Of a stretch of DNA of 47,294 bases, positions 8,948 through 47,051 are shown in pieces. The stretch is from Spongiibacteraceae bacterium. Its GTDB lineage: Bacteria; Pseudomonadota; Gammaproteobacteria; Pseudomonadales; Spongiibacteraceae. Position numbers and translations under genes: made by a program. Position 1 is the stretch's first letter; every line of letters starts with the position of its first letter. The notes under the pieces are model-generated. The model was not told where the DNA came from, made no database searches, and saw only the letters and a list, made by a program, of their open reading frames with translations. The DNA is taken from contig JBFHRT010000001.1 in NCBI GenBank assembly GCA_041591575.1, positions 1-47,294 of the forward strand, read 5' to 3'.

Positions 8948-8969
8948 AAAATCAATATTGTTTGTTTTT
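8948..8969. promoter_or_regulatory. AT-rich inverted-repeat operator candidate, site a
   Basis: AAAATCA-atattgtt-TGTTTTT, 68 nt upstream of the start codon at 8880 (minus-strand gene). Confidence 0.55.
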
Positions 8970-9020
8970 ATTTCAAGAGTCGCGAAAACACCGGTCAAAA
9001 GCTAGAAAACAAGAATGCTC

Positions 9021-9085
9021 GGCCAGTTGGGTGGGAAGCGGAGGGAGATCGCCGCGTCGCTGAAAAACGCTCCTCGCGATGACGG
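9021..9085 (+). repeat. REP/MITE-like element, half copy (loop plus right arm only)
   Basis: ..GTGGGAAGCGGAGGGAGATCGCCGCGTCGCTGAAAAACGCTCCTCGCGATGACGG. No left arm is present. Confidence 0.6.
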
Positions 9086-9095
9086 GAGTCTTTCC

Positions 9096-9222
9096 CGCGT
9101 CATTGCAAGGACCCGGACCGCGCTGCTTAGCGGGCCGGAGACGCGGCAATCTCGGCCAGGGTGGCAGGGACTCAGATAGATCTCCACGCCACATCGAAAA
9201 GCGATGCCGTTGGCGATGACGG
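9096..9222 (+). repeat. REP/MITE-like nested-hairpin element, copy B (expanded, 127 bp)
   Basis: Left arm CGCGTCATTGCAAGG..GACGCGGCAATCTC, core GGTGGCAGGGAC, degenerate right arm ..GATCTCC..GGCGATGACGG. Lies just downstream of the acyl-CoA ligase stop codon. Confidence 0.65.
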
Positions 9223-9250
9223 GGTCGTTATAGGAGCGATCGCAAGCCGG

Positions 9251-10816
9251 TCAGTTCACCGCCCGCTTCCGCCCCTCCCAGTAGGGCGCGCGCAGCACGT
9301 GTTTGAGCAGTTTGCCGGAGGCATTGCGCGGCAGCTCGTCGACAAAATCCACGCTTTTGGGCAGCTTGTAGCCGGCGATGCGCGAGCGTGCAAACTCGAT
9401 CAGCGCCGCCTCGCTCAGCTCGGCACCGGAACGCCTCACCACTACCGCCTTCACCGCCTCGCCCCAACGATCGTCGGGTACGCCGATCACCGCCACGTCC
9501 TGCACCGCCTCGTGGCTGTGCAGGACGTTCTCCACCTCCGCCGGATAGATGTTCTCGGCGCCGGAGACGATCAAGTCCTTGATGCGGTCGCAGATGTAGA
9601 GGTAGCCGTCGGCGTCCAGGTAGCCAGCGTCGCCGCTGTGGTACCAGCCGCCGCTGAGCGCGGCGGCGGTGGCCTCGCCTCGCTTCCAGTAGCCGTTCAT
9701 CACCGCATCCGAGCGGATCAGGATCTCGCCCACCTCACCGGCGGGCAGGGGCTCGCCGTCGGCGTCGGCAATGCGGATTTCGCTGCCGACCAGGGCCCTG
9801 CCACAAGAGTTCATGCGGGCATTGCCGCGCACGTCGTGATCCGCCGGTGGCAGCGCGCAGATGGTGCCGGCGGTCTCGGTCATGCCGTAGTGCTGGGAGA
9901 AGCGCGCATTGCCGAACAGCTGCAGCGAGCGCCGCAGCACGTCGCCGGAAATCGGCGAGGCGCCGTAGACGATGAGGCGCATGGCGCCGAGCTCGGCCCG
10001 CTGCGCCGCCTCGTCGTTGACCAGCGCCTGCAGCAGCGCCGGCACGATAAACATCTTGCTGGCGCCGCTCTCCACTGCCTGGACCACAGCGGCCACATCC
10101 GGCGCCGGCAGGATCAGGTTGGTGCTGCCCTGGTAGAAGGCGGTGAAGCCCCACATAGTGCCGCCGATATGAAAGCTGGGCATGGCCACCAGGCTGAGGT
10201 CGTCATCGCGCCACTCCCCCCAGTCCGCGGCCGCGGCGCCGGCCATCTGTGCGAAGAAGGCGCGGTGGCTGATCAGTACCCCCTTGGGCTGGCCGGTGGT
10301 GCCGCTGGTGTACATCTGCATCACCACCTCGTCGCCGCCACGCTCAAGTTGCGAATCGCGGCTGTCCTGGGCGTCGCGCCAGGCCGGATATTCGGCGCCC
10401 TCGCCGTCACAGACGATCACCGCCTCGATACCCGGACAGGCGGCGCGCAGCTGTGTCAGCAGCGGCAGGAAGGCGCTCTCGATAAACAGCGTTTTGACCT
10501 CGCCGTCGTTGAGAATAAAGGCCAGCTCCGCTGCCGCAAGCCGCCAGTTGAGGCCGATCAGCACGGTGCCCGCCTTGGCGCAGCCGAACAGCAGTTCGAA
10601 GAAATAGTCGCTGTTGAGCCCCAGGTAGGCGATGCGCTGCTGCGGCGTTCGGCCCTGCGCGCGGAGGCCGTTGGCGACCCGCGAGGCGTATTCGTCGAGC
10701 GCGCGGTAGCTGCTGCGGCGCCCGGCGAAGATCTGCGCGATAGCCTCGGGTTGATGTCCAGCGTGGAAGCGGACCACGTCGCCCAGACTGCGGGCTTGTT
10801 CAGCGGGCTTGATCAT
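9251..10816 (-). CDS. Acyl-CoA synthetase / AMP-dependent ligase (ANL superfamily)
   Basis: 521 aa. AMP-binding motif YTSGTTGQPKGV, plus GEI...GY and C-terminal GK motifs. GGAGG Shine-Dalgarno upstream of the ATG at 10816. Confidence 0.92.
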   Translation of the reverse strand: MIKPAEQARSLGDVVRFHAGHQPEAIAQIFAGRRSSYRALDEYASRVANGLRAQGRTPQQRIAYLGLNSDYFFELLFGCAKAGTVLIGLNWRLAAAELAFILNDGEVKTLFIESAFLPLLTQLRAACPGIEAVIVCDGEGAEYPAWRDAQDSRDSQLERGGDEVVMQMYTSGTTGQPKGVLISHRAFFAQMAGAAAADWGEWRDDDLSLVAMPSFHIGGTMWGFTAFYQGSTNLILPAPDVAAVVQAVESGASKMFIVPALLQALVNDEAAQRAELGAMRLIVYGASPISGDVLRRSLQLFGNARFSQHYGMTETAGTICALPPADHDVRGNARMNSCGRALVGSEIRIADADGEPLPAGEVGEILIRSDAVMNGYWKRGEATAAALSGGWYHSGDAGYLDADGYLYICDRIKDLIVSGAENIYPAEVENVLHSHEAVQDVAVIGVPDDRWGEAVKAVVVRRSGAELSEAALIEFARSRIAGYKLPKSVDFVDELPRNASGKLLKHVLRAPYWEGRKRAVN

Positions 10817-10846
10817 ACGCTTGCCTCCGAAATGCGTTGGTGCCTG

Positions 10847-11092
10847 CTAGTTGTAATGGCTATAGGGATTGGCCACCTCAATGGGCTTGGATTTGCGCAA
10901 CAGGAAGCCGAGCAGGAAGAACCACAGGCTGCCGCGGATCAGACCGAAGGCCTTGCGCGCCTCGCCGGGAGTGAGGATGCCCTTGACCGGCATGGCACCC
11001 ATGACGGTGCCGGTGAATTCCAGGTTGTTGCCCCTGTGGCTGAGGGCCTTGACCTCCATCAAAACGGAGCCATCGGCGCTGTAGATTTTCAT
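10847..11092 (-). CDS. Small hypothetical protein (81 aa) with a C-terminal hydrophobic helix
   Basis: The ATG at 11092 gives MKIYSADGSVLMEVKALSHRGNNLEFTGTVMGAMPVKG...SLWFFLLGFLL. It fits exactly between the CrtI-like and CoA-ligase genes on the same strand. The upstream part of the 226-aa track ORF overlaps the CrtI-like gene and has shadow-frame composition. Confidence 0.5.
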   Translation of the reverse strand: MKIYSADGSVLMEVKALSHRGNNLEFTGTVMGAMPVKGILTPGEARKAFGLIRGSLWFFLLGFLLRKSKPIEVANPYSHYN

Positions 11093-11163
11093 GCTGACCT
11101 CGCAGTGTGATAATTCGGCGCTTTGGCTGTCGCGCAACAAACAAATGCGTTCACGGGGCCTCC

Positions 11164-12738
11164 TCAGATCTGCATCACTGACTCGATATTCATGCCGAAG
11201 TCGTCCAGCATTTTCATCGCGGTGGCGCGGCCGCCGCCGTTCACCGCACCGCCGGGATGCATAAAGGGGCCGCTGAGGTAGAGGCCGTCGGCGCCGGGCA
11301 CGGCGTAGCGCGCCAGCGCCGGCGTCGGCCGCCGCCCCAGGTACTGGTGCATGAAGGCGCCGATGCCCATGATGTCGCCCTTCTGAAAAGACGCCGACCA
11401 GCGCGCCATATCCGCCGGCGATTCCGCCGCCGAGGCGATGATGTTGTCGTTGGTCATATTGCGGCAGAACTTGCTGTATTCCCCCAGCATCCACTCCTTG
11501 TATTGGTCGCGGACTTCCTCGCTCCAACCGCCGTCACGCTTCAGCTCCAGCGGCGCGAAGCAGTACAGGTAGAGGGTGTGCTTGCCGGCCGGCGCGCGGC
11601 TGGGATCGTGGCGGCTGTGGTGGGCAATGACCGCATTGAAATGTTTGGCCAGGCGGCCGTCGCGCACGTCGTCCAGGGCGCTGCGCAGATGCTCCATACG
11701 TGAGGGCAGGCACTCCACCAGCAGCGAATCGTTCACCTCACGGCAGTGGTAGTCCGGCGCCTCATGCAGGGCCCAGTGGGTATTGAGGGCGCCGAAGCTG
11801 GACAATTCACAGTTCCGGGCGTCGCGCACCAGCTGCTGGTGCAGGCCCTCGACCATATCCCCCAACAGGTGGGGGTGGATGCAGGCCACCACACCCTTTG
11901 TCGCGCTCAGGATTTCACCGCCGGCCAGCTCCACGCCCCTGGCCTCGCCGCCGCTCATCACGATGCGGGTAACCTCGCTGTCGAGGCGAATCTCACCGCC
12001 GTGGTATTCGATGCAGGCCGCCAACGCGTCGCTCAGCGCCTGGCTGCCACCCACCACCGCGGTCTCTTCCTGAGTGTGGGCGACGGCGGTCATGAAGTAC
12101 AGGGCGATGGCGGTGCCGCGCTCGTCGGGGTGGGTCATGCCCTCGCTCATCCACTTCATGAAGTGCATGCGCACTTTTTCGTTCTCAAACAGTTCGTGGC
12201 AGAGCTGGGTGCCGCTCTTGAACATGGTGCCGACGATTTCCTGACCCAGTGGGCTCTGGTCCAGCATCGCCATAAAGGGTCCGAAGGGCAGCGGCGGCTT
12301 GAACATGCTAGCGGTGAACATCGGCCCCATCTCGATGGTGCGGTTCACAAAGGCGCGGTAGGTCTCGGCGTCCCTGGCCGAGAACTTGGCGATGGATTCG
12401 CAGGTCTTGTCCAGGTCGACGTAGGTGCCCATCCAGGTGTTGTCGTCGAAGATGGAGGAATAGGTGATATCGGGGCAGACAAAGCGCAGGCCAAAGCGGG
12501 ACTGCAGCTCCAGCTCGTCGTGGCGGATCATCGGATTGGCCATGACGATGATCATGCCGGTGGCGTGGGTGTCGTGCTTGAAGCCCGGCGCGGTGATCTC
12601 CTTGGATACCACACCGCCACCCACCTGGTCGTTCTTTTCCAGCACACAGACTTTGAGCCCGGCTTTGGCCAGGTAGGCGGCGGCGGTGAGGGAGTTGGAA
12701 CCGGCGCCGACGACGATGATGTCGCAGTGATTGGACAT
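11164..12738 (-). CDS. NAD(P)/FAD-dependent oxidoreductase, phytoene desaturase (CrtI) family
   Basis: 524 aa. N-terminal dinucleotide fold DIIVVGAGSNSLTAAAYLAKAGLKVCVLEKNDQVGGG. Length and C-terminal GGAVNGGGR are typical of CrtI/CrtISO/RetSat-like enzymes. Confidence 0.88.
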   Translation of the reverse strand: MSNHCDIIVVGAGSNSLTAAAYLAKAGLKVCVLEKNDQVGGGVVSKEITAPGFKHDTHATGMIIVMANPMIRHDELELQSRFGLRFVCPDITYSSIFDDNTWMGTYVDLDKTCESIAKFSARDAETYRAFVNRTIEMGPMFTASMFKPPLPFGPFMAMLDQSPLGQEIVGTMFKSGTQLCHELFENEKVRMHFMKWMSEGMTHPDERGTAIALYFMTAVAHTQEETAVVGGSQALSDALAACIEYHGGEIRLDSEVTRIVMSGGEARGVELAGGEILSATKGVVACIHPHLLGDMVEGLHQQLVRDARNCELSSFGALNTHWALHEAPDYHCREVNDSLLVECLPSRMEHLRSALDDVRDGRLAKHFNAVIAHHSRHDPSRAPAGKHTLYLYCFAPLELKRDGGWSEEVRDQYKEWMLGEYSKFCRNMTNDNIIASAAESPADMARWSASFQKGDIMGIGAFMHQYLGRRPTPALARYAVPGADGLYLSGPFMHPGGAVNGGGRATAMKMLDDFGMNIESVMQI

Positions 12739-12758
12739 GGATACCTCGATCTAGACTG

Positions 12759-12856
12759 CCGTCATTGCGAGGAGCCGAAGGCGACGCGGCAATCTCCATC
12801 AGCGTGGCAGTGACCGTCAGGAGATTGCTTCGTCGCTGCGCTCCTCGCAATGACGG
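12759..12856 (+). repeat. REP/MITE-like nested-hairpin element, copy C (near-canonical, 98 bp)
   Basis: CCGTCATTGCGAGGAGC-cgaag-GCGACGCGGCAATCTCC-atcagcGTGGCAGTGACcgtca-GGAGATTGCTTCGTCGC-tgc-GCTCCTCGCAATGACGG. Lies inside a minus-strand operon, between the SDR and CrtI-like genes. Confidence 0.9.
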
Positions 12857-12899
12857 CGCTGATATTCTGTGTCTCGCGTTTCCCGTTTCGCGCCCCGCC

Positions 12900-13661
12900 T
12901 CAATACTGAATCCGCTGGGTAAAGCCGCCGTCCACCACCACGTTGCTGCCGGTGGTGTAGCTGGCGCGCGGGCTGAGCAGGCACAGCGCCTGGAAGGCAA
13001 CCTCCTCTGCGGTGGCCATACGCCCCATGGGGCAGGCGGCCAGGGTGGCCTCGTACACCGGCGGCATGCCCTGCTTGACCTGGTCCCACATGCCGCTCTC
13101 GACAAACACCGGGCCGGGACTGACGGCATTGACGCGGATGCCCTTGGGCGCCAGCTCCATGGCCAGGTTGCCGGCGTAGTTGAGCAGCGCCGCCTTCATC
13201 GCCGCATAGGGGGTGGGGCCGGCGAACTTTTCCACTGCCGCCGAGGTGGCGATCACCAGCACCGCGCCGCAGTCAGATTGTTCCAGGTAGGGCATAGCGG
13301 CATTGATGCCGCGCACGGTGCCCAGCATGTCCAGCTCCAGATTGGCCAGCCAGCCGGCCTCGCTGCTGTCGAAGCCGCCGGCGCTGACATTGGGCACGAA
13401 GCAGTCGATGCCGCCCAGCTCCTCGGCGCAGCGCGCCACCCACTGGGCATAGGCATCGGCGTCGCGCACATCGCAGGCGGCGCCGTATACCGCCACGCCG
13501 TGGCGACTCAGCTCCGCCACCGCCTGCTCAACTTCCGCCGCGTCGCGGGCACAGATGCCCAGCCGACAGCTCTCCTGGGCCAGCAGCTCGGCGATGGCGC
13601 GACCGATGCCCTTGGTGGCGCCGCTGATCACGGCCACTTTGTCTTTCAGTTGCAGATCCAT
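12900..13661 (-). CDS. SDR-family oxidoreductase
   Basis: 253 aa. The TGxxxGIG-type motif appears as VISGATKGIGRAI, and a classical SDR YxxxK region is present (YAAMKAA). Confidence 0.9.
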   Translation of the reverse strand: MDLQLKDKVAVISGATKGIGRAIAELLAQESCRLGICARDAAEVEQAVAELSRHGVAVYGAACDVRDADAYAQWVARCAEELGGIDCFVPNVSAGGFDSSEAGWLANLELDMLGTVRGINAAMPYLEQSDCGAVLVIATSAAVEKFAGPTPYAAMKAALLNYAGNLAMELAPKGIRVNAVSPGPVFVESGMWDQVKQGMPPVYEATLAACPMGRMATAEEVAFQALCLLSPRASYTTGSNVVVDGGFTQRIQY

Positions 13662-13716
13662 AGTGTGCTCCTTATTAGGCTTATGACGTGGAGACTCGTT
13701 GCAACGCTCCCTGCGC

Positions 13717-14487
13717 TCAGGCGGCGGTCTGACCGCCGTCCACCGCCAGGTGGCTGCCGGTGACGCCGCTGGAGCGTTCTGAGGCGTAGTACAGCACCGC
13801 CTCGGCTACTTCGCGCCCCTCTACCAGGCGGCCGATCGGGTGGGTGGCGGCTAGCTCCGCCAGCGCCGCCTCCGGATCGCCGGCGGCGGCCAGCAGCGGC
13901 TCAAGCATGGGCGTGCGCACCACCCCGGGCAGCACCGCGTTGCAGCGGATGGTATAGCCGGCGCCGGCGCAGTGCAGGGCGATGCTGCGGGTCAGGCTCA
14001 GAATCGCCGCCTTGCTGGCGGCGTAGGCGGTGACCCAGGGTGCCGGCTTAAGCGCCGTGGTAGAGGCGACATTAACCAGCGCAGCGCCGTCGGGGTTATC
14101 TTTCATCAGTTCGATGGCGTATTTGCAGCCCAGGAACACGCCACCGGCGTTGGTGCGCAGGGTACTCTGGAAGGTGTCGTAGTCGCAGTTCTCGATATCC
14201 CCGGGCAGCATCACGCCGGCGCAGTTGACCAGTGCGTCAAGCCGCCCCCAGCGCTGGCGAATGGTCGCCATCACCCGCTGCCAATCCGCCTCCTCGGCGA
14301 TGTCCTGGCGCAGAAACTCGGCGCGCTCGCCCAGCTCTCGCTGCAGCGCCGCGCCGCGCTCCTCGCTGCGACCGGACAGCAGCACCACGGCGCCCTCCTC
14401 GGCGAAGCGGCGGGCAATATCGGCGCCGATGCCCGAGGTGGCGCCGGTAATAAGAACGACCTTGTCGGCTAGCACAGCCATGAACAT
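13717..14487 (-). CDS. SDR-family oxidoreductase
   Basis: 256 aa. VLITGATSGIGADIARRF and YAASKAA are present. The start may instead be the ATG at 14481. Confidence 0.9.
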   Translation of the reverse strand: MFMAVLADKVVLITGATSGIGADIARRFAEEGAVVLLSGRSEERGAALQRELGERAEFLRQDIAEEADWQRVMATIRQRWGRLDALVNCAGVMLPGDIENCDYDTFQSTLRTNAGGVFLGCKYAIELMKDNPDGAALVNVASTTALKPAPWVTAYAASKAAILSLTRSIALHCAGAGYTIRCNAVLPGVVRTPMLEPLLAAAGDPEAALAELAATHPIGRLVEGREVAEAVLYYASERSSGVTGSHLAVDGGQTAA

Positions 14488-14546
14488 CCCCTCGTATTGC
14501 CGAGCAATGCTTCAGTTTCGACTTAGTATAGGGGAATGAAAAATAA

Positions 14547-14568: not shown

Positions 14569-14663
14569 AATAGTGCGCAGTGATAATCAGGGGCTGCCAG
14601 TAGGATGGGGTTGCAGCGAGGTCGACAGGAAATGCCGGGGAATGATGCGCTATTCGACAAACT

Positions 14664-14760
14664 CCGTCGTTGCGAGGAGCGCCAGCGACGCGGCAATCTC
14701 CTCAAGTCACTGCCACACTGGAGGGGATTGCCACGTCGCAGGCGGCGGCTCGCAATGACG
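14664..14760 (-). repeat. REP/MITE-like element, copy D1
   Basis: CCGTCGTTGCGAGGAGC..GCGACGCGGCAATCTCC..GTCACTGCCAC..GGGGATTGCCACGTCGC..GGCTCGCAATGACG. The core is in the reverse orientation. Confidence 0.85.
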
Positions 14761-14769
14761 CGACTATCT

Positions 14770-14870
14770 CACCGTTATCGCGAGGAACGCTTGCTAGCGA
14801 CCCAGCAATCTTGCTGAAGCCAGCGCCATCCCGATGGATGGTTGCCGTGTGGCCAGCCCACAACGACAGG
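14770..14870. repeat. REP/MITE-like element, copy D2 (strongly degenerate)
   Basis: CACCGTTATCGCGAGGAACGC..AGCGACCCAGCAATCTTGC...GGATGGTTGCCGTGTGGC..CACAACGACAGG aligns arm-by-arm with the canonical element but carries many substitutions. Confidence 0.5.
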
Positions 14871-14893
14871 GATGCTCCGCTATTCGACAACGC

Positions 14894-14990
14894 CCGTCAT
14901 TGCGAGGAGCGCAAGCGACGCAGCAATATCCTCAAGTCACTGCCACACTGAATGAGATTGCCGCGCCGCCGGTGGCGGCTCGCAATGACG
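14894..14990 (-). repeat. REP/MITE-like element, copy D3
   Basis: CCGTCATTGCGAGGAGC..GCGACGCAGCAATATCC..GTCACTGCCAC..TGAGATTGCCGCGCC..GGCTCGCAATGACG. It is the partner of D1 in a ~230-bp tandem duplication. Confidence 0.85.
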
Positions 14991-15054
14991 CGGGTATGTC
15001 ACCGCCATCGCGAAAAGCGCCGCCCGCCGCGGCGCGTTATGAGGAGAGTGCGCC

Positions 15055-15723
15055 TCAGCCCTTCTTGCTGTTACCGCGATACATGCGGTAACACTCGTCA
15101 GTGAGGTGCTCGACGATGGCGTCAAAGCGGGCGCGCTTGCGCGAGTGCACATAGGAACCCACCAAGCCGCGCAGGGTGAAGTTGACCAGGTCGGAGACCA
15201 GTTGCATCTGCCCTTCCTCCCAGTCCCCCTTGGTCCACAGTGACTCCTGAGCGCTGTAGAACTCCTTCTCGAAACGCTTCTGCATCGGCTCCATCAGCTT
15301 GGCCAGCTCGGCGTCGGTGCGCGCGGCAACAAACAGTTCCTGGTAGGCAGTAAAGCTGGGTTGGTTCAGGTATTTCCAGATGCCGAGGATACCCTCACGA
15401 AAATCCTCGCGGGTCAGTTCCTTGGCCTCGTGGGGCGGCAGGTAGGGAATCGCCTCACGAAACTCCCGCATGCGTTTTTCCTGCACATAGAGCACGGTGG
15501 CGGCAATCACCTCGTTGCGCGACGGGAAGTGGTGCATCATCGCGCCGCGGGACACGCCGGCCTCCTCGCAGATGCGCGGCGTGGTGGTATGACTGTAGCC
15601 ATACTGAATCAGGCAGCGGATGGCCGCTTCCAGAATGGCGGTGCGGGTCATCTGGCTCTTTTCCGCCTGCCATGAGCCCTCGCGGGTGCCGGCCTTGCGC
15701 CGGCGGGCGACTGGATTATTCAT
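15055..15723 (-). CDS. TetR/AcrR-family transcriptional regulator
   Basis: 222 aa. The N-terminal HTH reads TRTAILEAAIRCLIQYGYSHTTTPRICEEAGVSRGAMMHHFPSRNEVI. Confidence 0.92.
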   Translation of the reverse strand: MNNPVARRRKAGTREGSWQAEKSQMTRTAILEAAIRCLIQYGYSHTTTPRICEEAGVSRGAMMHHFPSRNEVIAATVLYVQEKRMREFREAIPYLPPHEAKELTREDFREGILGIWKYLNQPSFTAYQELFVAARTDAELAKLMEPMQKRFEKEFYSAQESLWTKGDWEEGQMQLVSDLVNFTLRGLVGSYVHSRKRARFDAIVEHLTDECYRMYRGNSKKG

Positions 15724-18376: not shown

Positions 18377-18504
18377 TAGAAAACAACAACAAGCTGAAAC
18401 TAAACTCCGGCGCAGCCATTTCCGGCCACATTATAAATTGATTGCCCCGCCCTACTTACCGCGAGAGTTACCACTAGCAAAGCGACCACCGCCCTTCCCA
18501 CCAA

Positions 18505-18526: not shown

Positions 18527-18604
18527 TAAATGCCGAGGGCTGCGCTGTCAATGACAGCCAGCTATAACGATGCCGCCGACAACAACACAGGACCGAAACA
18601 CAGC

Positions 18605-25964: not shown

Positions 25965-25967
25965 GCT

Positions 25968-35756: not shown

Positions 35757-35777
35757 GATTTCTTGCTCCTTTCTACA

Positions 35778-35908: not shown

Positions 35909-35931
35909 CGCTTCTTGAATGACAACGATCG

Positions 35932-37537: not shown

Positions 37538-37549
37538 GGTCTGCTCTCG

Positions 37550-38932: not shown

Positions 38933-38965
38933 AGTGCTCGCTCGTTGTGTGTTCAGTTAAATTCC

Positions 38966-39066
38966 CCGTCATTGCGAGGAGCCGCAGGCGACGCGGCAGT
39001 CTCCGTCAGCGTGGCAGCGGGCCCAGGGAGATCGCCGCGGCGCAAACGGCGCGCTTCGCGACGACG
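38966..39066 (+). repeat. REP/MITE-like element, copy K
   Basis: CCGTCATTGCGAGGAGC..GCGACGCGGCAGTCTCC-gtcagcGTGGCAGCGGGcccag-GGAGATCGCCGCGGCGC..GCGCTTCGCGACGACG. Lies between the E2 and E3 genes. Confidence 0.8.
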
Positions 39067-39091
39067 ACGATTGGGTTGCGCGCCGCCGTGA

Positions 39092-40621
39092 TCAGGCCAG
39101 CAGCGTCGCTGGCCGCTCGATAAAGCCCTTTAGCGCCTGTAAAAACTGCGCCGCGGTGGCGCCGTCGATGACCCGGTGGTCGCTGGACAGATTCAGCGTC
39201 ATCGCCAGCCCCACTTCCAGTTCGCCACTGGCGCCCACCACCGGCCGGCGCTCGGCACCGCCCACGGCAAGGATGGCGGCCTGGGGCGGGTTGATGATGG
39301 CGTCGAAGTGCTTGACGCCGTACATGCCCAGATTCGAGATACAGAAGCTGCCGCCCTGGAATTCGCTCGCCTGCAGCCGGCCCAGCTTGGCGCGAGTGGC
39401 GAGGTCGCGCACCTCGTTGGAGATCTGCACCACACCCTTGCTGTTAGCCGAGCGCACGACCGGCGTGATCAGACCATCTTCCAGCGCCACCGCCACCGCG
39501 ATATCGGCATCGGCAAAGCGCGTGATGGCCTCGCCGTCAAACTGGATGTTCAGCGCCGGCACTGCCTGCAGCACCGCGGCACTGGCCTTGATCAGCAGGT
39601 CGTTGACCGAAATCCTGGCATCGCTGCGCGCGGCATTGAGCTGTTCGCGCGCAGCCTGCAGCGCCTCCAGCCGCACGTCCACCGCCACCCGAAAATGGGG
39701 CGCGAGCTGCTTGGACTGCTGCAGGCGCGCGGCGATGGTTTTGCGCATGCCGTTCAGCGGTTGCGTCTGTACTGGCGTGTTAGCTTGCTGCGAAGCCGGC
39801 TCGACGGCCGCCTGCACCGAGGCATTTGCAGGTTTGTCCGCGTCATTGCGCAGCGCGGCCGCGGCTTCGACATCGGCCTTGGCGACGCGACCGTTGCGAC
39901 CGCTGGCGCGACAGTCGTTGAGATTGATGCCCAGCTCGGCGGCCAGGCGCCGCGCCACCGGGGTGGCCTTGATATGGCTGTCATCGGCGCCGCTGGGGCG
40001 CGGCGCTTGCCGCGCGTGCTGCGGCAGCGCCAGCTCTCCACCGGCGGCGGCCACCGCCTGCTTGAGGTCGGCGAGGGTGACGCGGCCACCGCGACCGCTT
40101 GCGGCGGCGTGGTTAAGCACCGCGTTGAGGTTGATGCCCTCGCGCGCCGCCAGCCGCCGCGCCACCGGGGTGGCTGGCACGGCGCTGTCGTCGCCACCCT
40201 CGCCAAGGCCGTTGACGGCTACCCCCCTGGGCGCGGCATCGCCATTGCTGTGACTGCCGCCGGCCGACAGTTCGTCCACCGCCGCGCCATTAGGCTCGTC
40301 TGCGGCCTGTTCGCCGGCGTCGCAACCAAAGGCCGCAATGAAGGCGTCGATATCGGCCTCGGCGGTGTCCGCCTCGGCCACCACCCCCAGCAGCGCTCCC
40401 ACCGCCAGGGTCTCGCCGGGCTGTGCGAGGATGCGGCGCAGGGTGCCGGCGCGGTCGGCGGTGAGGGTGTTGACGATTTTGCTGGTCTCGATGTCCACCA
40501 GCTCGGCGCCGGGCGCGATGGCCTCGCCCTCGGCCAGGTGCCAGCTATTGATGACGCCCTCACTCATTTCCATGCCCCACTTGGGCATGGCGATGGGGTA
40601 AATGCTTGCGGCCATGATCAA
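39092..40621 (-). CDS. Dihydrolipoamide acyltransferase (E2) with one lipoyl domain and two peripheral-subunit-binding domains
   Basis: 509 aa. Lipoyl-Lys context VDIETSKIV. Two PSBD copies: ATPVARRLAAREGINLN (about 40052-40177) and ATPVARRLAAELGINLN (about 39860-39970). Catalytic motif DHRVIDGA. Confidence 0.92.
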   Translation of the reverse strand: MIMAASIYPIAMPKWGMEMSEGVINSWHLAEGEAIAPGAELVDIETSKIVNTLTADRAGTLRRILAQPGETLAVGALLGVVAEADTAEADIDAFIAAFGCDAGEQAADEPNGAAVDELSAGGSHSNGDAAPRGVAVNGLGEGGDDSAVPATPVARRLAAREGINLNAVLNHAAASGRGGRVTLADLKQAVAAAGGELALPQHARQAPRPSGADDSHIKATPVARRLAAELGINLNDCRASGRNGRVAKADVEAAAALRNDADKPANASVQAAVEPASQQANTPVQTQPLNGMRKTIAARLQQSKQLAPHFRVAVDVRLEALQAAREQLNAARSDARISVNDLLIKASAAVLQAVPALNIQFDGEAITRFADADIAVAVALEDGLITPVVRSANSKGVVQISNEVRDLATRAKLGRLQASEFQGGSFCISNLGMYGVKHFDAIINPPQAAILAVGGAERRPVVGASGELEVGLAMTLNLSSDHRVIDGATAAQFLQALKGFIERPATLLA

Positions 40622-41625
40622 CCCTCCAGCGCGGCTCTGACGCCTGCTTCGATGCGCTCCACCGACGGCACGTACAGGTCTTCCAGCAACGGCGCGAAGG
40701 GCACCGGCGTGTGCGGCGCAGTGACCTTGACCACCGGTGCGCGCAGCGAGTGGAAACCCTTGGCGGCGACCATGCTGGCGATGTCAGCGGCGAGGCTGCA
40801 GCGCTCGTTGGCCTCGTCGACAATCACCAGGCGACCGGTGATCTCCACGCTCTCCAGAATCGCCTCCTCGTCCAGCGGTGAGACGCTGCGCGGATCGATG
40901 ACATCGCAGCCGATGCCCTCCTCCGCCAGCTTGTCGGCCACCGCGTTGGCCCGCGGCACCATGGACGACAGCGCGACGATGGTGACGTCGCCGCCGTGGC
41001 GGGTGAAGGCGGCCTCGCCAAAGGGAATGCAGTAGTCCTCGTCCGGCACCTCACAGGCGGCGTCGTAGAGGGTCTTGTGCTCCAGGAAGATGACCGGGTC
41101 ATTGTCGCGAATGGCGGTGGCGAGCAAGCCCTTGGCGTCATAGGCGTTGGAGGGCATCACCACCTTTAGCCCCGGCACCATGGTGACCATGGGGTGCAGC
41201 ATCTGCGAGTGCTGGGCGCCGCCGCGGAAACCGGCACCGACCATGGCGCGGATCACCAGCGGGGTTTCCGACTTGCCGCCAAACATATAACGAAACTTGG
41301 CGGCCTGGTTGTAGATCTGGTCGAAGCAGACGCCGATGAAGTCGAAGAACATCAGGTCCACCACCGGGCGCAGGCCGGTGCAGGCGGCACCGGCGGCGGC
41401 GCCGACAAAAGACGACTCGCTGATGGGTGTGTCGATCACCCGCTCGCGGCCAAATTCGCTCACCAGCCCCTTGGTAACCCCGAACACGCCGCCATAGGCA
41501 TCGTCGCTGCCGTCGCAGCCGGCACCACCGGCCACGTCCTCACCGATAACAATGACACGAGAATCGCGCCGCATCTCCTGGCGCAGGGTGTCGTTGATCG
41601 CTTCGCGAATAGTTTTCGTCGCCAT
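40618..41625 (-). CDS. 2-oxoacid/acetoin dehydrogenase E1 component, beta subunit
   Basis: 335 aa. Transketolase-like Pyr and C-terminal domains (VIVIGEDVA..GG.F..T.GL...FG..RV.DTPI.E). Overlaps the E2 start by 4 nt. Confidence 0.93.
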   Translation of the reverse strand: MATKTIREAINDTLRQEMRRDSRVIVIGEDVAGGAGCDGSDDAYGGVFGVTKGLVSEFGRERVIDTPISESSFVGAAAGAACTGLRPVVDLMFFDFIGVCFDQIYNQAAKFRYMFGGKSETPLVIRAMVGAGFRGGAQHSQMLHPMVTMVPGLKVVMPSNAYDAKGLLATAIRDNDPVIFLEHKTLYDAACEVPDEDYCIPFGEAAFTRHGGDVTIVALSSMVPRANAVADKLAEEGIGCDVIDPRSVSPLDEEAILESVEITGRLVIVDEANERCSLAADIASMVAAKGFHSLRAPVVKVTAPHTPVPFAPLLEDLYVPSVERIEAGVRAALEG

Positions 41626-41634
41626 GGGGATTCC

Positions 41635-42618
41635 TCAGTATTGCGCGTACACGTCCAGGGTGAGCTGATCGGCGCTGGGGCCGGGGGCACCCAGCGCCTC
41701 TTCCACCGCCTCGTCGATGAGCAGCGAGACCTCGCGGTCGACCGCTTCCAGCTGCGCGGCCTTGAGCCAGCCCTCGGCCTGCACACGCTCGCTGAAAATC
41801 TTCAGGCAGTCGCGCTCGGCGCGCAGCCGCGCCAGCTCACCATCGCCGCGGTAGAGCTGCGGATCGCCAACGAAGTGGCCGTTGAAGCGCACCACCTGCG
41901 CCTCGATGGCATAGGGCCCCCTGCCGCTCTTGCAGTGCTCCACCGCCTGTTGCGCGGCCTCGTACACCGCGAAAAAATCGGAGCCGTCCACCTTCACCGC
42001 CGGCATGCCGAAGGCCTCGGCGCGCTTGGCGATGTCGCCGCTACCGACGGCATAGGCGGCGCCAGTGCCCTCGGCGTAGCCGTTGTTCTCGAACACAAAG
42101 ATCGCCGGCACCTGCAGCACCACCGCCAGGTTCATGGACTCGAACACCGTGCCCTGGTTGGAGCCGCCATCGCCGGTGAAGGCCAGCCCGACGCTGGGCT
42201 TGCCCAGGGTCTTGGCCGACAGCGCCGCACCCACGCACAGCGGCGGCGCACCGCCGACGATGGCATTGGCGCCGAGCATACCTTTGTCGATGTCGGCGAT
42301 GTGCATGGAGCCGCCCTTGCCTTTGCACAGCCCCGTCGCCCTGGCCATGATCTCCTTCATCATGCCCTTCACGTCACAGCCCTTGGCAATGCAGTGACCG
42401 TGGCCGCGATGGGTGCTGCCGATGTAGTCGTCGTCGCTCAGGTGCATGCATACGCCGGTGGCGACCGCCTCCTGGCCGTCGTAGACATGAACAAATCCGG
42501 GGATATTGCCGGCCTGAAATTCCGCGATGACCCGCTCTTCAAAGGCGCGGATGGTTTTCATCGTGCGGTAGGCACTGAGCAGTGTGTCTTCGGGTAGGGC
42601 CATGTTGTCTCCCGCCAA
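41635..42618 (-). CDS. Thiamine-diphosphate-dependent dehydrogenase E1 component, alpha subunit (AcoA/PdhA-like)
   Basis: 327 aa. TPP-binding region GDGGSNQG...N.A......PAIFVFENNGYA, and the N-terminal M..IR.FEE pattern. Confidence 0.93.
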   Translation of the reverse strand: MAGDNMALPEDTLLSAYRTMKTIRAFEERVIAEFQAGNIPGFVHVYDGQEAVATGVCMHLSDDDYIGSTHRGHGHCIAKGCDVKGMMKEIMARATGLCKGKGGSMHIADIDKGMLGANAIVGGAPPLCVGAALSAKTLGKPSVGLAFTGDGGSNQGTVFESMNLAVVLQVPAIFVFENNGYAEGTGAAYAVGSGDIAKRAEAFGMPAVKVDGSDFFAVYEAAQQAVEHCKSGRGPYAIEAQVVRFNGHFVGDPQLYRGDGELARLRAERDCLKIFSERVQAEGWLKAAQLEAVDREVSLLIDEAVEEALGAPGPSADQLTLDVYAQY

Positions 42619-42670
42619 GCTGTTGTCGTTATTTCACCTGCAGTCTTCGACTATAGTGGAAGCGATTTTA

Positions 42671-42713: not shown

Positions 42714-42815
42714 CCAGTCATTGCGAGCCTCCGATGGCGGCGCGGCAATCGCCAGCAGGCAAGGTGCCAGTCCAAGGAGATCGCCACGGCGTGACATGCG
42801 CGCCTCGCGATGACG
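42714..42815 (+). repeat. REP/MITE-like element, copy L1
   Basis: CCAGTCATTGCGAGCC..GGCGCGGCAATCGCC..AAGGTGCCAGTCC..GGAGATCGCCACGGCG..GCGCCTCGCGATGACG. Confidence 0.75.
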
Positions 42816-42827
42816 TCGGAATAAACC

Positions 42828-42978
42828 CGCGTCATTGCGAGGAGCCGCAGTCGACGCGGCAACCCCATTCCGCGTGGCAGTGGCCTGATGGCGATCACCG
42901 CGTCGTGCGGGGCGCCTACAGAAATTTTCTTCTGCAATTTCTGCACTTCCGCCATCCCTGGCGGTCGTCGCGATGACG
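42828..42978 (+). repeat. REP/MITE-like element, copy L2 (about 45-nt AT-richer insertion in the right arm)
   Basis: CGCGTCATTGCGAGGAGC..TCGACGCGGCAACCCC..GCGTGGCAGTGGCC..GGCGATCACCGCGTCG..[ctacagaaattttcttctgcaatttctgcacttcc]..GGTCGTCGCGATGACG. Confidence 0.75.
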
Positions 42979-42993: not shown

Positions 42994-44418
42994 TCAGAAA
43001 TTCAGGGCCTTCAACTCCAGAAACTCGTCCAGCCCCGCCCGCCCCAGCTCGCGGCCATTGCCGGACTGCTTGTAACCGCCAAAGGGCGCGGCGAAGTTGA
43101 ACTGACCGCCGTTGATGGCCACCTGCCCGGTGCGCAGTTGCAGCGCCACTTTTTTCGCGCGCTCGCTATCCGCCGACCACACACCGCCGGAGAGACCGTA
43201 GTCGCTGTCATTGGCCTCGGCGATGGCCTGCTCCTCGCTGTCGTAGGGGAGGATGGCCAGTACCGGGCCGAAGATCTCCTCGCGGGCGATGAGCATGTCG
43301 TTGCGCACATCACTGAAGATCGTGGGCTGCACGTAGGCGCCCCGCTCCAGCCCCGGCGGCGGCTCTACGCCGCCGCAGACCAGGGTGGCCCCCTCGTCGA
43401 TGCCGAGCTGGATATAACCGAGTACGGTGTTTTTCTGTGCCTGAGATACCAGCGGCCCCATAAAGGTATTGGGGCTGCGCGGGTCGCCCACCACCACCGC
43501 GGCGGCGGTCTCGCGGGCGATGGCCACTGCCTGCGCCTGCTGCTCGCGCGGCACGAACACGCGGCTGAGGGCGGCACAGGTCTGGCCGCTGTTGGCCATC
43601 ATCGCCATCACCGCCGCCGGCACTGCCTGCGCCAGCGGGCAGTCGTCCAGCAGAATTAGCGCCGACTTGCCACCCAACTCCTGGGACACGCGCTTGATGG
43701 TGGGCGCCGCCAGCTCGGCTATGCGCGCGCCGGAGGCGGTGGAGCCGGTGATGGATACCATGTCGACTTGCGGGTGGGCCGCCAACACCTCGCCCACGCT
43801 GCGCCCGGCACCGCTGACCAGGTTGAACACCCCGGCGGGCAGTTCGGCGGCCTCGGCCAGCTCGGCGAACAGGAAGGCGTTGAGCGGGGTCTCAGAACTG
43901 GGCTTGAGCACCGCGGTGCAACCGGCGATCAGCGCCGGCGCCAGCTTGACGGCAATCTGGTGCAGCGGATAGTTCCAGGGGGTGATGAAACTACACACCC
44001 CCACCGGCTCGCGGTGAATCTCCGAGTTGCCCACCGTTTCCGACTCCTCAGCGGCATAGGCGCGGCCCACCTCAACGTAACTGGCCAGATCGCCCAGTCC
44101 CAGCCCCACCTGCACCTCGCTGGCAAAGCCGGCGGGCGCGCCCAGCTCCAGGCGGATCACCTCGGCAAATTCGGCGGCGCGCTCACCCATCAGCGCCAGC
44201 AGCTTTTCCACATAGGCCAGGCGCTCGCTCACCGGCCGCGCCGCCCAGGCGGGAAAGGCCTCCCGCGCCGCCAGTATCGCGCGCTCGGCGTCCTGAGCAC
44301 TGCCTGCCGGCACCTTGCCGATGTTCTCGCCGTCGGCGGGATTGATCACGTCGATGGCGCCAGTGGTTTGCAGCACCTGCCACTGGCCTCCGATATAGAA
44401 CTTGTCATAGATACGCAT
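42994..44418 (-). CDS. NAD(P)-dependent aldehyde dehydrogenase
   Basis: 474 aa. The ALDH motifs are present as ITGSTASG, QELGGKSA and SGQTCAALSR. Confidence 0.92.
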   Translation of the reverse strand: MRIYDKFYIGGQWQVLQTTGAIDVINPADGENIGKVPAGSAQDAERAILAAREAFPAWAARPVSERLAYVEKLLALMGERAAEFAEVIRLELGAPAGFASEVQVGLGLGDLASYVEVGRAYAAEESETVGNSEIHREPVGVCSFITPWNYPLHQIAVKLAPALIAGCTAVLKPSSETPLNAFLFAELAEAAELPAGVFNLVSGAGRSVGEVLAAHPQVDMVSITGSTASGARIAELAAPTIKRVSQELGGKSALILLDDCPLAQAVPAAVMAMMANSGQTCAALSRVFVPREQQAQAVAIARETAAAVVVGDPRSPNTFMGPLVSQAQKNTVLGYIQLGIDEGATLVCGGVEPPPGLERGAYVQPTIFSDVRNDMLIAREEIFGPVLAILPYDSEEQAIAEANDSDYGLSGGVWSADSERAKKVALQLRTGQVAINGGQFNFAAPFGGYKQSGNGRELGRAGLDEFLELKALNF

Positions 44419-44429
44419 GGGAATCCCCG

Positions 44430-45524
44430 TCAGTGTGTGAGGCTGTTGTAGCGCTGGAGGTGTTCATCACTGGAGCCGAACAGCTGGCTCAGCACGGTGA
44501 GGCGCTTGAAGTAGTGGCCGACGCTGAGCTCGTCGGTCATGGCGATACCACCGTGCAGTTGTATCGCCGACTGGCCGACGAAGCGCGCGGCGTCGTCGAC
44601 CTTAACCTTGAGGGCTGCGATATAGCGACGCGCATCGGCCGCCCCAGACTGCAGCTTGGCGGCGCAGACCGGCAACAACGAGCGCGCCGACTCGCAGGCC
44701 AGATACATGTCCACCATACGGTGCTGCAACACCTGAAAGCGGCCAATGGGGCTCCCGAACTGCCGGCGCTCCTTGCAGTAATCCACCGTTGCCGTCAGCA
44801 ACGCGTCCATGGCACCCACGGCCTCGGCGCACACCACCAGCAGCGCCTCGTCCAGCACCACTGCCAGCACGCCTTCTGCCTCGGCCTCGCTCAGCAGGGC
44901 ATCGCGCCCCAGGTGCACATCGTCGAGCGCGATGTCGGCAGCGCTGCGGCCGTCGATGGTGGGGTATTCGCGGCGGCCGAGCCCGGGGCTGTCGGCGGGT
45001 ACGGCAAAAAGCGCAACCGCGGAATGCAGGCGTGCGCTGACAACCAGCAACTGCGCCGCCGGTGCGTTGTACACCACCGCCTTACTGCCGTTGAGCCGAT
45101 AGCCCTCCCCCTCGGGCTCGGCGCGAGTCTCGAGTCCCGCTGCCTCAAAGTGCGCCAGTGCCGCCTGCAACTCGCCGGCCATCAGCGGCGCCAGCCAGCG
45201 CCGACGCTGTTCGGCCGAGGCGGCGCGGCGCAGCGCGCCGCCGGCGAGCACGATGTTTTCCAGGTAGGGCTCGACCACCAGATGGCGACCGAAGGCCTCG
45301 AACAGCCCCGCCAGCTCCACCGCGCCACCGCCGAAGCCGCCGTCGGCCTCGGCAAAGGGCAGGCCCAGCCAGCCCAGCTCCGCGAAGTCGCGCCAGCACT
45401 CGGCGCTGAAGGGCGCCGCGTCGGCGACGTTGGCGCGGCGCTGCTCGAAGCTGTAGTGATCGCCTAGGTACCTGCCGATGCTGTCGTTGAGCAGCTGCTG
45501 CTCTTCGTTACTGTCAAAACTCAT
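44430..45524 (-). CDS. Acyl-CoA dehydrogenase family protein (364 aa; probable non-catalytic partner subunit)
   Basis: ATG at 45524 (AAGGAAACA upstream). ACAD N-, middle- and C-domain pattern, ..QLHGGIAMTDE. The position of the usual YEG catalytic Glu reads LFGSS. Confidence 0.85.
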   Translation of the reverse strand: MSFDSNEEQQLLNDSIGRYLGDHYSFEQRRANVADAAPFSAECWRDFAELGWLGLPFAEADGGFGGGAVELAGLFEAFGRHLVVEPYLENIVLAGGALRRAASAEQRRRWLAPLMAGELQAALAHFEAAGLETRAEPEGEGYRLNGSKAVVYNAPAAQLLVVSARLHSAVALFAVPADSPGLGRREYPTIDGRSAADIALDDVHLGRDALLSEAEAEGVLAVVLDEALLVVCAEAVGAMDALLTATVDYCKERRQFGSPIGRFQVLQHRMVDMYLACESARSLLPVCAAKLQSGAADARRYIAALKVKVDDAARFVGQSAIQLHGGIAMTDELSVGHYFKRLTVLSQLFGSSDEHLQRYNSLTH

Positions 45525-45579
45525 GGCTGTTTCCTTTGTCATTCAGAACACGGCTCACGCTATAGACCAGCGCCAACTT

Positions 45580-45680
45580 CTCGTCATCGCGAGGAGCGTT
45601 TTCAGCGACTTGGCGATCTCCCAGAGACACTGCCAACTTGGCGGAGATTGCCGCCTCGCTTTCGGCTCGTCGCAATGACG
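45580..45680 (-). repeat. REP/MITE-like element, copy M
   Basis: CTCGTCATCGCGAGGAGC..GCGACTTGGCGATCTCC..ACACTGCCAAC..GGAGATTGCCGCCTCGC..GGCTCGTCGCAATGACG. Lies between the two ACAD genes. Confidence 0.85.
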
Positions 45681-45761
45681 CGCCCTTGCTGATAAAAAAG
45701 GCCCCGCTGGAAGGGGCCAAGCGGGAGGTACTCCGTTGCCCGCGCCACAGCCGAGGTCCGC

Positions 45762-46967
45762 TTACAGCCCCAGCACCAGCTTGGCGATGATATTGCGCTG
45801 TACCTGGGCAGTGCCGCCGTAGATGGTGGAGGCGCGGTTGTTGAGATAGGCATTGGTCAATGCGATGCCGCTCTCCGGGCCGATGGGCTCGCCGACAAAG
45901 TCCGGCGCCAGCGCGGCGTTCTGCAGCGGCGCGCAGTAGCGGCCGCGCAATTCGATGCCCAGCTCATCCAGTTGCTGACCCAGCTCGGTGCCGATCAGCT
46001 TGGTCAGCGAGGACAGCGCGCCGGGGTTCTGCCCCGCCGCAGCCTGCGACTTGATGCGCTGTTCCATGGCCTGCAGCGCCAGGGCGTCGATCTCCAGCCG
46101 ACCCAGCCGCGCCGCGAACAACGGCTCATCGAGATAGCAACTACCGCCGGGCGAGGTGTACTCGGCGGCCAGCTTGCGCAGCCTGGCCAGCTGCTGGTTG
46201 ATGGGCACAAAGTAACTGAGGCCACCGCGCTCGAACTCCAGCAGGTACTTGGCCACCTCCCAGCCCTGGTTCTCGGTGCCAACCAGATTGGCCCGCGGCA
46301 CGCGCACATCGTCGAAAAATACCTCGCACTGCTCCACTTCGCCGTCGATGCCGACGATGGGCGACACGGTGATGCCCGGGGCATCCAGGTCGATGAGCAG
46401 GAAGCTGATGCCCGCCTGGGGCCGGGCCCCGGGATCGGTGCGCACCAGGCAGAAGATCTTGTTGGCGCGGTGGGCATAGCTGGTCCAGATCTTGGCGCCG
46501 TTGACGACATAGTCGTCGCCGTCGGCCACCGCCCGGGTCTGCAGCGAGGCCAGGTCGGAGCCGGCATTGGGTTCGGAATAGCCCTGGCACCACACGTCCT
46601 CGCCGGAGCGGATGCGCGGCAGCAGTTCCGCCTTCTGCTGCTCGCCGCCATAGCGGATCAGCATCGGCCCCAGCATCGCCAGCCCCATCGGCAGCAGTGC
46701 CGGCGCGCCGGCCATGCGGCACTCCTCCAGGAAAATATCGCGCTGATTTAGGGTCCAGCCGATGCCGCCGTACTCCTCGGGCCAGTCCGGGGTGATCCAG
46801 TTGTGCTCATAGAGAATTCGGTGCCAGGCCATCGCCGCATCGAAATCGGCGAAGATGCTGGTCATGCGCTGCCCTGCCCGGCGCAGAGTCGGGGTCAGGT
46901 GGGTGTCGAGAAACTGCCTGACGGTCTTGCGGAAGACATGGTCGGCATCGCCGGCGGATAGGTCCAT
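45762..46967 (-). CDS. Acyl-CoA dehydrogenase family protein (401 aa)
   Basis: ACAD pattern: W..PDWPEEYGG.GW, the CQGYSEPNAGSDLASL motif, and the C-terminal IYGGTAQVQRNIIA. Confidence 0.9.
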   Translation of the reverse strand: MDLSAGDADHVFRKTVRQFLDTHLTPTLRRAGQRMTSIFADFDAAMAWHRILYEHNWITPDWPEEYGGIGWTLNQRDIFLEECRMAGAPALLPMGLAMLGPMLIRYGGEQQKAELLPRIRSGEDVWCQGYSEPNAGSDLASLQTRAVADGDDYVVNGAKIWTSYAHRANKIFCLVRTDPGARPQAGISFLLIDLDAPGITVSPIVGIDGEVEQCEVFFDDVRVPRANLVGTENQGWEVAKYLLEFERGGLSYFVPINQQLARLRKLAAEYTSPGGSCYLDEPLFAARLGRLEIDALALQAMEQRIKSQAAAGQNPGALSSLTKLIGTELGQQLDELGIELRGRYCAPLQNAALAPDFVGEPIGPESGIALTNAYLNNRASTIYGGTAQVQRNIIAKLVLGL

Positions 46968-47029
46968 CGCTCACTGCCTCGTTTTTATTGGACTCGCCGT
47001 CCATTGACGGCGGGGCGCTCCCCCAACAT

Positions 47030-47051
47030 AAAAACAGACATGATTGTTTTT
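47030..47051. promoter_or_regulatory. AT-rich inverted-repeat operator candidate, site f
   Basis: AAAAACA-gacatgat-TGTTTTT, 63 nt upstream of the ACAD start (46967, minus strand). Confidence 0.6.

Follow-up and report, generated by a model that had tools for sequence, protein, structure and literature searches.

The 47,294-nt stretch of Spongiibacteraceae DNA considered here (contig JBFHRT010000001.1; hereafter the window) carries an A+T-rich inverted repeat, AAAAACA-N8-TGTTTTT, in front of many of its putative catabolic genes. Are these genes members of one regulon and, if so, which protein reads the repeat and how would it act on the promoters? On the sequence evidence assembled below, it is very probable that one TetR-family repressor, encoded at 15055-15723, has the eight palindromes of the window as its operators. 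The protein would represent an uncharacterised subfamily confined to marine Cellvibrionales.

Palindromic sites in the window

A search of the window for AAAAACA-N8-TGTTTTT with at most two mismatches returned exactly eight sites, at the same eight places as had been listed in an earlier note on this DNA. Only the weakest copy had been described differently, as a match at 15800 with a nine-nucleotide spacer; it lies at 15801 and reads AAAACCA-N8-TGTTTTG. The sites are as follows, with scores from a position matrix that was built without the window sites.

8948-8969, operator site 1 (AAAATCAATATTGTTTGTTTTT), upstream of the gene for an 888-aa dihaem lipoprotein; 1 mismatch, 37.5 bits
14547-14568, operator site 2 (AAAAACAGTCTTACCTGTTTTT), upstream of a unit of two short-chain dehydrogenase/reductase (SDR) genes, a CrtI-like gene and a CoA ligase gene; 0 mismatches, 35.0 bits
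15801-15822, operator site 3 (AAAACCAGCGCTGCCTGTTTTG), a weak copy 77 nt ahead of the start codon of the TetR gene; 2 mismatches, 16.2 bits
18355-18376, operator site 4 (AAAAACATATATGATTGTTTTT), upstream of a TonB-dependent receptor gene; 0 mismatches, 38.1 bits
18505-18526, operator site 5 (ACAAACATTCGTGTATGTTTTA), upstream of the unit for an aldehyde dehydrogenase (ALDH), a carotenoid cleavage oxygenase (CCO) and an enone reductase; 2 mismatches, 33.2 bits
23804-23825, operator site 6 (ACAAACATTTATGCTTGTTTTT), in the 111 bp between the divergent ThuA and P450 genes; 36.6 bits
42671-42692, operator site 7 (TAAAACAAGCACGATTGTTTTT), upstream of the E1alpha operon; 37.2 bits
47030-47051, operator site 8 (AAAAACAGACATGATTGTTTTT), upstream of a unit of two acyl-CoA dehydrogenase (ACAD) genes and an ALDH gene; 0 mismatches, 36.9 bits

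The recurrence of the motif is not random. Dinucleotide-preserving shuffles of the whole window gave a mean of 0.01 matches, and none reached eight. To allow for the higher A+T content of intergenic DNA, its 4.8 kb were also shuffled separately in 40-nt blocks, which keep the local A+T richness; 0.0085 matches were expected by this procedure and eight were observed, in agreement with the earlier judgement that chance recurrence was very unlikely. The motif was recovered independently by a repeat finder (families D9 and D12). Nothing is shared beyond the motif of about 26-30 bp, and likeness among the copies stops at about 29-36 nt, so that they do not belong to a larger repeat element. When the window was scored with the outside-window matrix, the eight sites were its top eight positions (seven at 33-38 bits, the site at 15801 at 16.2 bits and the ninth-best position at 10.0 bits), a ranking that is not fully independent in that the matrix descends from a window-derived seed pattern.

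All eight copies are intergenic, as previously claimed, once the start codons are corrected against the gene calls of the identical NCBI contig. The longest open reading frame (ORF) of the first dihaem gene, beginning with a TTG at 8955, overlaps the site at 8948, and the NCBI gene call starts at 8880; similarly, the ALDH ATG at 18530 stands 3 nt past the site at 18505, and likely starts are found at 18551 or 18604. The upstream placement of the copies was also borne out, with a measured distance to the start codon of about 30-85 nt in place of the 40-80 nt estimated before. Among the 5' intergenic regions of the window that are at least 50 bp long, 7 of 18 carry a site and 11 of 18 do not, the eighth site lying beyond the last gene; the left 6 kb, which is unrelated, contains three such regions and no site in any of them. 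The weak copy at 15801 is probably the autoregulation site of the TetR gene.

Half-site-like stretches lie 1-35 nt past three of the operators (at about 18377-18393, at 23830-23841 and at about 9000-9015; GAAAACAACAACAAG, CGTTTGTTGC and AGAAAACAAG). These stretches may serve as auxiliary half-sites, or their A/C-rich sequence may be due to chance.

Conservation of the motif and the linked TetR gene

Phylogenetic footprinting was performed on the window and 81 non-redundant loci from other Cellvibrionales genera, each with an orthologue of the TetR gene (1.35 Mb in total). The simple pattern was matched 151 times in this set, compared to 3.4 times in local shuffles, and 124 of the matches fell within the 10% of the DNA that is intergenic. 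An iterated position matrix converged on 293 sites (about 3.6 in shuffles) and yielded a refined motif, AAAaCAAtCatGaTTGtTT, with the palindromic consensus AAAAAaACAAtCatGaTTGTtTTTTT and key positions A3, C6, A7, C10 / G13, T16, G17, T20. In this matrix A3 and T20 are invariant, and C10 and G13 of the spacer are 82% conserved even though the seed pattern had left both of them free. What had been taken for an extra ATCAT element in the spacer is the inner part of the palindrome itself (A8 t9 C10 a11 t12 G13 a14 T15) and not an asymmetry.

In these genera the sites precede orthologues of the same gene families as in the window, which supports the earlier proposal that a single regulon ties together about 38 kb of DNA. 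A site is present within 400 bp upstream of the TetR orthologue at 74 of the 81 loci and flanks that gene at 77 of 81, in keeping with the nomination of 15055-15723 as the regulator gene. Sites were likewise found before the first genes of transcription units encoding E1alpha (20/20), TetR (63/67), CoA ligase (16/17), the large ACAD subunit (10/11), the TonB receptor (5/6), enone reductase (30/41) and DUF35 protein (24/33); for first genes without a window homologue, the count was 59/242. A small Rieske ferredoxin, a crotonase and an ABM protein are further recurrent targets.

The controls point the same way. Across the loci, 210 of 490 5' intergenic regions carry a site, as against 2 of 113 convergent regions of similar composition. 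Unrelated metagenome contigs (0.75 Mb) gave 19 matches at 12 bits or more and none at 25 or more, and the TetR-linked loci (about 1.3 Mb) gave 285 matches, 175 of which reached at least 25 bits. An exact scan of metagenome contigs for AAAANCAAGCNNGNTTGNNTTT, which serves as a rough natural-DNA control and not as a specificity test, returned at least 120 matches, mostly chance occurrences in unrelated and often A+T-rich DNA (e.g., human gut); among the 120 matches listed, 5 were accompanied by TetR or by several regulon genes. The window itself matches contigs of two metagenome-assembled genomes (MAGs), GCA_041584715.1 and GCA_041597775.1; the latter was the only close relative found for fine-scale footprinting, and its 100% identity over the dihaem promoter made it uninformative.

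Elsewhere, the usual order has the TetR gene divergent from an E1alpha-E1beta-E2-E3-DUF35-thiolase-Rieske operon, followed by SDR genes, with enone reductases, Rieske genes and ACADs nearby. The E1alpha-to-Rieske operon of the relatives is orthologous to the window from 42618 down to 34353 (E1beta 73-79% identical). The TetR gene of the window lies instead between the SDR unit and the TonB receptor gene (in L004, L005, L029, L036 and other loci it is divergent from E1alpha), and the E1alpha promoter region of the window now follows an ALDH gene, with its operator retained. In some intergenic regions operators are paired at distances of 61-150 bp (9777/9838 in L008, 2644/2711 in L024, 4906/4979 in L078 and 18355/18505 in the window), an arrangement that may allow cooperative binding or looping.

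The 222-aa product of 15055-15723 is the only transcription factor found among the 38 window ORFs scanned against Pfam. It matches PF00440 (TetR_N) over residues 30-75 with 54.2 bits against a cut-off of 24 (E 1.2e-14), its AlphaFold model (pLDDT 88.4) shows the all-helical, two-domain fold of the family with nine helices, and the top Foldseek matches in the PDB are all TetR-family proteins (probability 1.0, TM-scores 0.5-0.66). About 200 homologues were found, all of them in marine Cellvibrionales (Halieaceae/Luminiphilus/Parahaliea, Porticoccaceae/SAR92, Zhongshania, Pseudomaricurvus and Halioxenophilus). No NCBIfam model (equivalog) reaches its cut-off for this protein, and matches from sequence and profile searches of the PDB, including 2fbq and KstR2, are confined to the helix-turn-helix. 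Among 35 orthologues the helix-turn-helix residues are invariant, which fits the conserved operator core.

The N terminus of all orthologues is a disordered and strongly basic tail. It is 16-60 residues long (residues 1-17 in the window protein), averages about 8 Arg/Lys in about 30 residues, and precedes a conserved G-W-Q-A-E-K-S motif. By analogy with SimR, this tail might contact the A/T flanks of the operator through the minor groove.

Promoter geometry and mode of regulation

How such a protein would act can be gauged from the position of the sites relative to promoter elements. When the sites are oriented towards the downstream gene, a -10-like TAnnnT starts 15-16 nt past the motif far more often than at other offsets (101 and 37 of 346), and after removal of near-duplicates it is found at 14-17 nt in 43% of sites. 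At 14-17 nt it occurs on 47% of gene-facing sides and on 25% of the others, where most exceptions reflect mis-called divergent genes. A 17-bp spacer places the -35 hexamer on motif positions 15-20, which read TTGTTT generally and TTGACT in Halieaceae. Thus, the gene-proximal half-site itself would be the -35 box and the site would overlap it, in place of the position between -35 and -10 that had been suggested before. The operator would span roughly -50 to -28 relative to the predicted start and be centred at about -39, on the assumption that transcription starts about 7 nt past the -10 box. Five gene-facing sides in the window (dihaem, SDR, E1alpha, P450 and ThuA) fit this geometry, as judged from the following hexamers.

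8927-8932, minus strand, -10-like TAGGGT, 15 nt from the site at 8948
14525-14530, minus strand, -10-like TATACT, 16 nt from the site at 14547
23780-23785, minus strand, -10-like TAGCAT, 18 nt from the site at 23804
23842-23847, plus strand, -10-like TAAGCT, 16 nt from the site at 23804
42650-42655, minus strand, -10-like TATAGT, 15 nt from the site at 42671

The following mechanism is proposed from these relations. A TetR dimer would bind the palindrome over about 18-26 bp; in most cases the -35 hexamer of the promoter would be provided by the half-site nearer the gene (TTGTTT; in Halieaceae TTGACT), with the TAnnnT box 17 bp further on, and the bound repressor, covering about -50 to -28, would block RNA polymerase. 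In divergent regions, such as that around 23804 and the E1alpha/TetR regions of other genomes, the two half-sites of one operator would supply the -35 boxes of both back-to-back promoters. The repressor would also control its own gene, and would be released by a substrate or intermediate of the pathway, most plausibly a branched or isoprenoid-type acid or acyl-CoA.

Several observations weigh against this proposal. No clear -10-like hexamer is found at the canonical distance from the sites at 18355, 18505, 47030 and 15801 (three to four of the window sites), and a scan for the generic sigma-70 consensus was overall not above chance and placed no promoter at any of the eight; the geometry described above rests on positional analysis of the sites and not on that scan. 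TTGTTT matches only three of the six positions of TTGACA, and a centre near -39 would also suit a class II activator. The density of sites far from the cluster is known from proxies only, namely convergent regions and unrelated metagenome contigs. Finally, the window TetR gene is not divergent from E1alpha, and its product is only 40-48% identical to its orthologues, without a close relative (best 48%).

The first of the alternatives to consider is that the palindrome is a class II activator site, at which the TetR protein acting as an activator, or another dimeric factor, recruits RNA polymerase from a position overlapping -35. Class II sites of CRP/FNR are centred at -41.5, close to where the 22-bp dyad would lie (about 39 nt upstream of the predicted start), and TTGTTT is an imperfect -35 hexamer. 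However, the gene-proximal half-site provides the three positions of TTG at 68/90/95%, becomes the near-consensus TTGACT in Halieaceae and is separated from TAnnnT by a 17-bp spacer; the promoters therefore look self-sufficient. TetR-family proteins are, moreover, overwhelmingly repressors. The consensus cores of CRP and FNR sites are TGTGA-N6-TCACA and TTGAT-N4-ATCAA, and the operator has AACAA/TTGTT at those positions, so that the core of a CRP/FNR site is absent. We regard activation as unlikely.

A genuine operator could also belong to another regulator encoded elsewhere in the genome, with the linked TetR protein controlling something else. The displacement of the window TetR gene from the E1alpha operon, unlike the arrangement in other genera, would be in accord with this, as would the second TetR paralogue found in the cluster of some genomes (L029). 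Nevertheless, the site flanks the TetR orthologue at nearly all loci (77/81) across many genera, no other regulator family is consistently linked, and the invariant helix-turn-helix suits the conserved operator core, which together make a different regulator quite improbable. Repression by the linked TetR protein is thus retained as the preferred explanation.

A third alternative is that the motif is no specific protein-binding site but the generic A+T-rich make-up of a promoter, with an UP element and a -35 box; A- and T-tracts do form its outer arms, and one of these falls on the -35 box. This reading is scarcely tenable given the strict dyad symmetry, the conserved C10/G13 and invariant A3/T20, the absence of the motif from 11 of 18 window and 280 of 490 locus 5' intergenic regions, and the count of 0 matches at 25 bits or more in unrelated metagenome DNA versus 175 in TetR-linked loci. 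An RNA hairpin (terminator or attenuator) or a piece of a mobile repeat element can practically be dismissed, for although the motif is an inverted repeat in a window full of REP/MITE-like repeats, its hairpins are weak (-3.6 to -6.1 kcal/mol), the sites are upstream of the -10 box and hence probably untranscribed, no Rfam model matches, copy likeness stops at about 29-36 nt and the REP-like element differs in sequence.

Related systems, gene content and possible substrate

The type of mechanism, a TetR repressor with a palindromic operator over -35, is textbook, and several described systems bear comparison. PsrA recognises C/GAAAC-N2-4-GTTTG/C and acts by promoter occlusion (PMC13104628). 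This Pseudomonas regulator responds to long-chain fatty acids and controls beta-oxidation genes, rpoS and its own gene. The earlier comparison with the PsrA class holds insofar as a TetR-family dimer and an AAAC/GTTT palindrome are shared, together with autoregulation and control of acyl-CoA dehydrogenase / beta-oxidation-type genes, both of them predicted for the window regulator. It fails in the spacing, which is AAAC-N10-GTTT with a conserved central C..G in the window and N2-4 in PsrA, and in the protein, which is not a PsrA orthologue: 2fbq, which we take to be PA3006/PsrA, was matched by the family profile over the helix-turn-helix only (E about 1e-6, rank about 39 among PDB TetRs) and was not in the top 60 of a single-sequence search.

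KstR2, which controls steroid C/D-ring catabolism in Mycobacterium and Rhodococcus, has the 14-bp motif AnCAAGnnCTTGnT (PMC3068626). Like the regulator proposed here, this TetR repressor governs a clustered lipid/steroid catabolic regulon in which several operons are divergent, and it has a site at its own gene; its half-site core, CAAG/CTTG, resembles the Halieaceae variant GCAAGC-NN-GCTTG. In the window operator (CAAgC-NN-GcTTG), however, CAAG and CTTG are 4 bp apart versus 2 in KstR2, A/T-tract flanks extend the site to 22-26 bp, and the host belongs to another phylum. Membership in the KstR2 group was rejected on the basis of the spacing, 2 bp larger, and of a match to 4w97 that covers the helix-turn-helix only (E 3e-6).

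The operators tetO and IR1, bound by TetR and QacR, are dyads placed over promoter elements, with one region serving divergent promoters and ligand-induced release, as is proposed for the window site; tetO measures 15 bp and IR1 28 bp (two dimers), and the window site is intermediate in length. In structure the window protein matches QacR, EilR, GusR and others with Foldseek TM-scores of no more than 0.5-0.6. In Pseudomonas aeruginosa, AtuR is a TetR repressor of acyclic terpene utilisation that binds inverted repeats in a divergent promoter region. Its gene lies beside an isoprenoid-type catabolic cluster, as is proposed here, but it governs one atu operon versus eight or more units.

The genes of the window were mapped by ORF selection on third-position G+C (GC3), Pfam and NCBIfam, which upheld the annotation given earlier. 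The units with a predicted operator and the regulator gene are listed below.

6214-8880, minus strand, dihaem c-type lipoprotein; predicted regulated unit
9251-14487, minus strand, SDR, SDR, CrtI/CrtO-like FAD oxidoreductase, 81-aa ORF and acyl-CoA ligase; predicted regulated unit
15055-15723, minus strand, TetR-family regulator, 222 aa (PF00440)
15870-18278, minus strand, TonB-dependent receptor; predicted regulated unit
18530-22766, plus strand, ALDH, RPE65-family carotenoid/stilbene cleavage oxygenase and enone (alkenal) reductase-like protein; predicted regulated unit
22985-23773, minus strand, ThuA-like protein (likely start 23740); predicted regulated unit
23885-30571, plus strand, P450, glutathione S-transferase (GST), zinc-dependent alcohol dehydrogenase, second dihaem lipoprotein, SDR and Rieske oxygenase; predicted regulated unit
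32487-42618, minus strand, E1alpha, E1beta, E2 and E3 (acetoin/pyruvate-dehydrogenase-like), DUF35/ChsH2-OB, thiolase-like protein, Rieske oxygenase, SnoaL, ABM and luciferase-like monooxygenase; predicted regulated unit
42994-46967, minus strand, PimC/PimD-like large and small acyl-CoA dehydrogenase subunits and ALDH; predicted regulated unit

The first seven genes of the E1alpha unit make up the regulon's conserved core operon. Taken together, a TonB receptor, a carotenoid/stilbene-type cleavage oxygenase, ALDHs, enone reductases, a CrtI-like flavoprotein, a CoA ligase, heteromeric ACADs, a DUF35/thiolase-like pair, an acetoin-dehydrogenase-like complex and Rieske/P450 oxygenases suggest the catabolism of a bulky branched lipid, and the substrate could be isoprenoid, apocarotenoid or steroid-like. 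Steroid degradation has been reported for Halieaceae and Spongiibacteraceae (PMC5790920); the window is without the hallmark 9,10-seco pathway genes, and a steroid was therefore not assigned as the substrate.

A more specific suggestion, put forward tentatively and with more doubt than confidence, is that the window holds a version of a previously undescribed regulon, widespread in marine Cellvibrionales, which encodes a new degradation pathway for (apo)carotenoids or other isoprenoid-type lipids and whose TetR protein senses an acyl-CoA or acid intermediate. Its carriers include SAR92/Porticoccaceae, OM60/NOR5 Halieaceae and Zhongshania. The conserved core might then comprise the acetoin-dehydrogenase-like E1/E2/E3, the DUF35/thiolase-like pair, a Rieske oxygenase with its ferredoxin, SDRs and enone reductases, and in this MAG the regulon might have been expanded by a carotenoid-cleavage-type oxygenase, a CrtI/CrtO-like oxidoreductase, a P450, a TonB-dependent receptor and two as yet uncharacterised dihaem lipoproteins. 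In the literature found, neither such a Cellvibrionales regulon nor a carotenoid-cleavage/TonB/TetR catabolic cluster is described, nor are the regulator subfamily and the operator. The motif links the roughly 38 kb of heterogeneous genes here with an orthologous core in dozens of marine genera, and would thereby mark out a catabolic pathway, as yet uncharacterised, in bacteria that reach high abundance in phytoplankton blooms. The operator DNA, the 222-aa repressor and cultured relatives with the same system could serve as reagents toward finding the substrate.

Several features of the gene map deserve mention in their own right. The two dihaem lipoproteins (6214-8880, minus strand, 888 aa; 26997-28553, plus strand, 518 aa) are paralogous, contain two CxxCH haem motifs each and both sit in units with a predicted operator. 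Their matches to the di-haem cytochrome c peroxidase subfamily were no more than partial and stayed below threshold, and no homologue of solved structure, hence no rubber oxygenase-type relative, was detected. The 81-aa ORF (10847-11092, minus strand), located between the CrtI-like and CoA-ligase genes, is a gene call in the NCBI MAG and has no Pfam match. The ORF at 24978-25964 (plus strand) is too long at its N terminus, where a spurious extension rich in Arg and Pro crosses a REP-like element; the real gene, for the GST, starts near 25320. A gene for a TPR/DUF4034 protein (30799-32250, minus strand), with a G+C content of 0.55-0.59 compared to about 0.64 for the window, stands between convergent units without an operator and may be a later insertion.

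The REP/MITE-like palindromic element itself (about 80-150 nt; CCGTCATTGCGAGGAGC...GCGACGCGGCAATCTCC...GGAGATTGC...GCTCCTCGCAATGACGG) occupies, in both orientations, at least 15 gaps between genes, some of them within presumed operons, at the following positions.

First half of the window: 5672-5766, 9038-9171, 12752-12862, 14639-14790, 14869-15020, 20126-20215, 22772-22871 and 22892-22970
Second half of the window: 25139-25248, 30618-30736, 32388-32468, 35820-35910, 38959-39069, 42714-42932 and 45603-45682

This element makes up most of the long intergenic regions that carry no operator.

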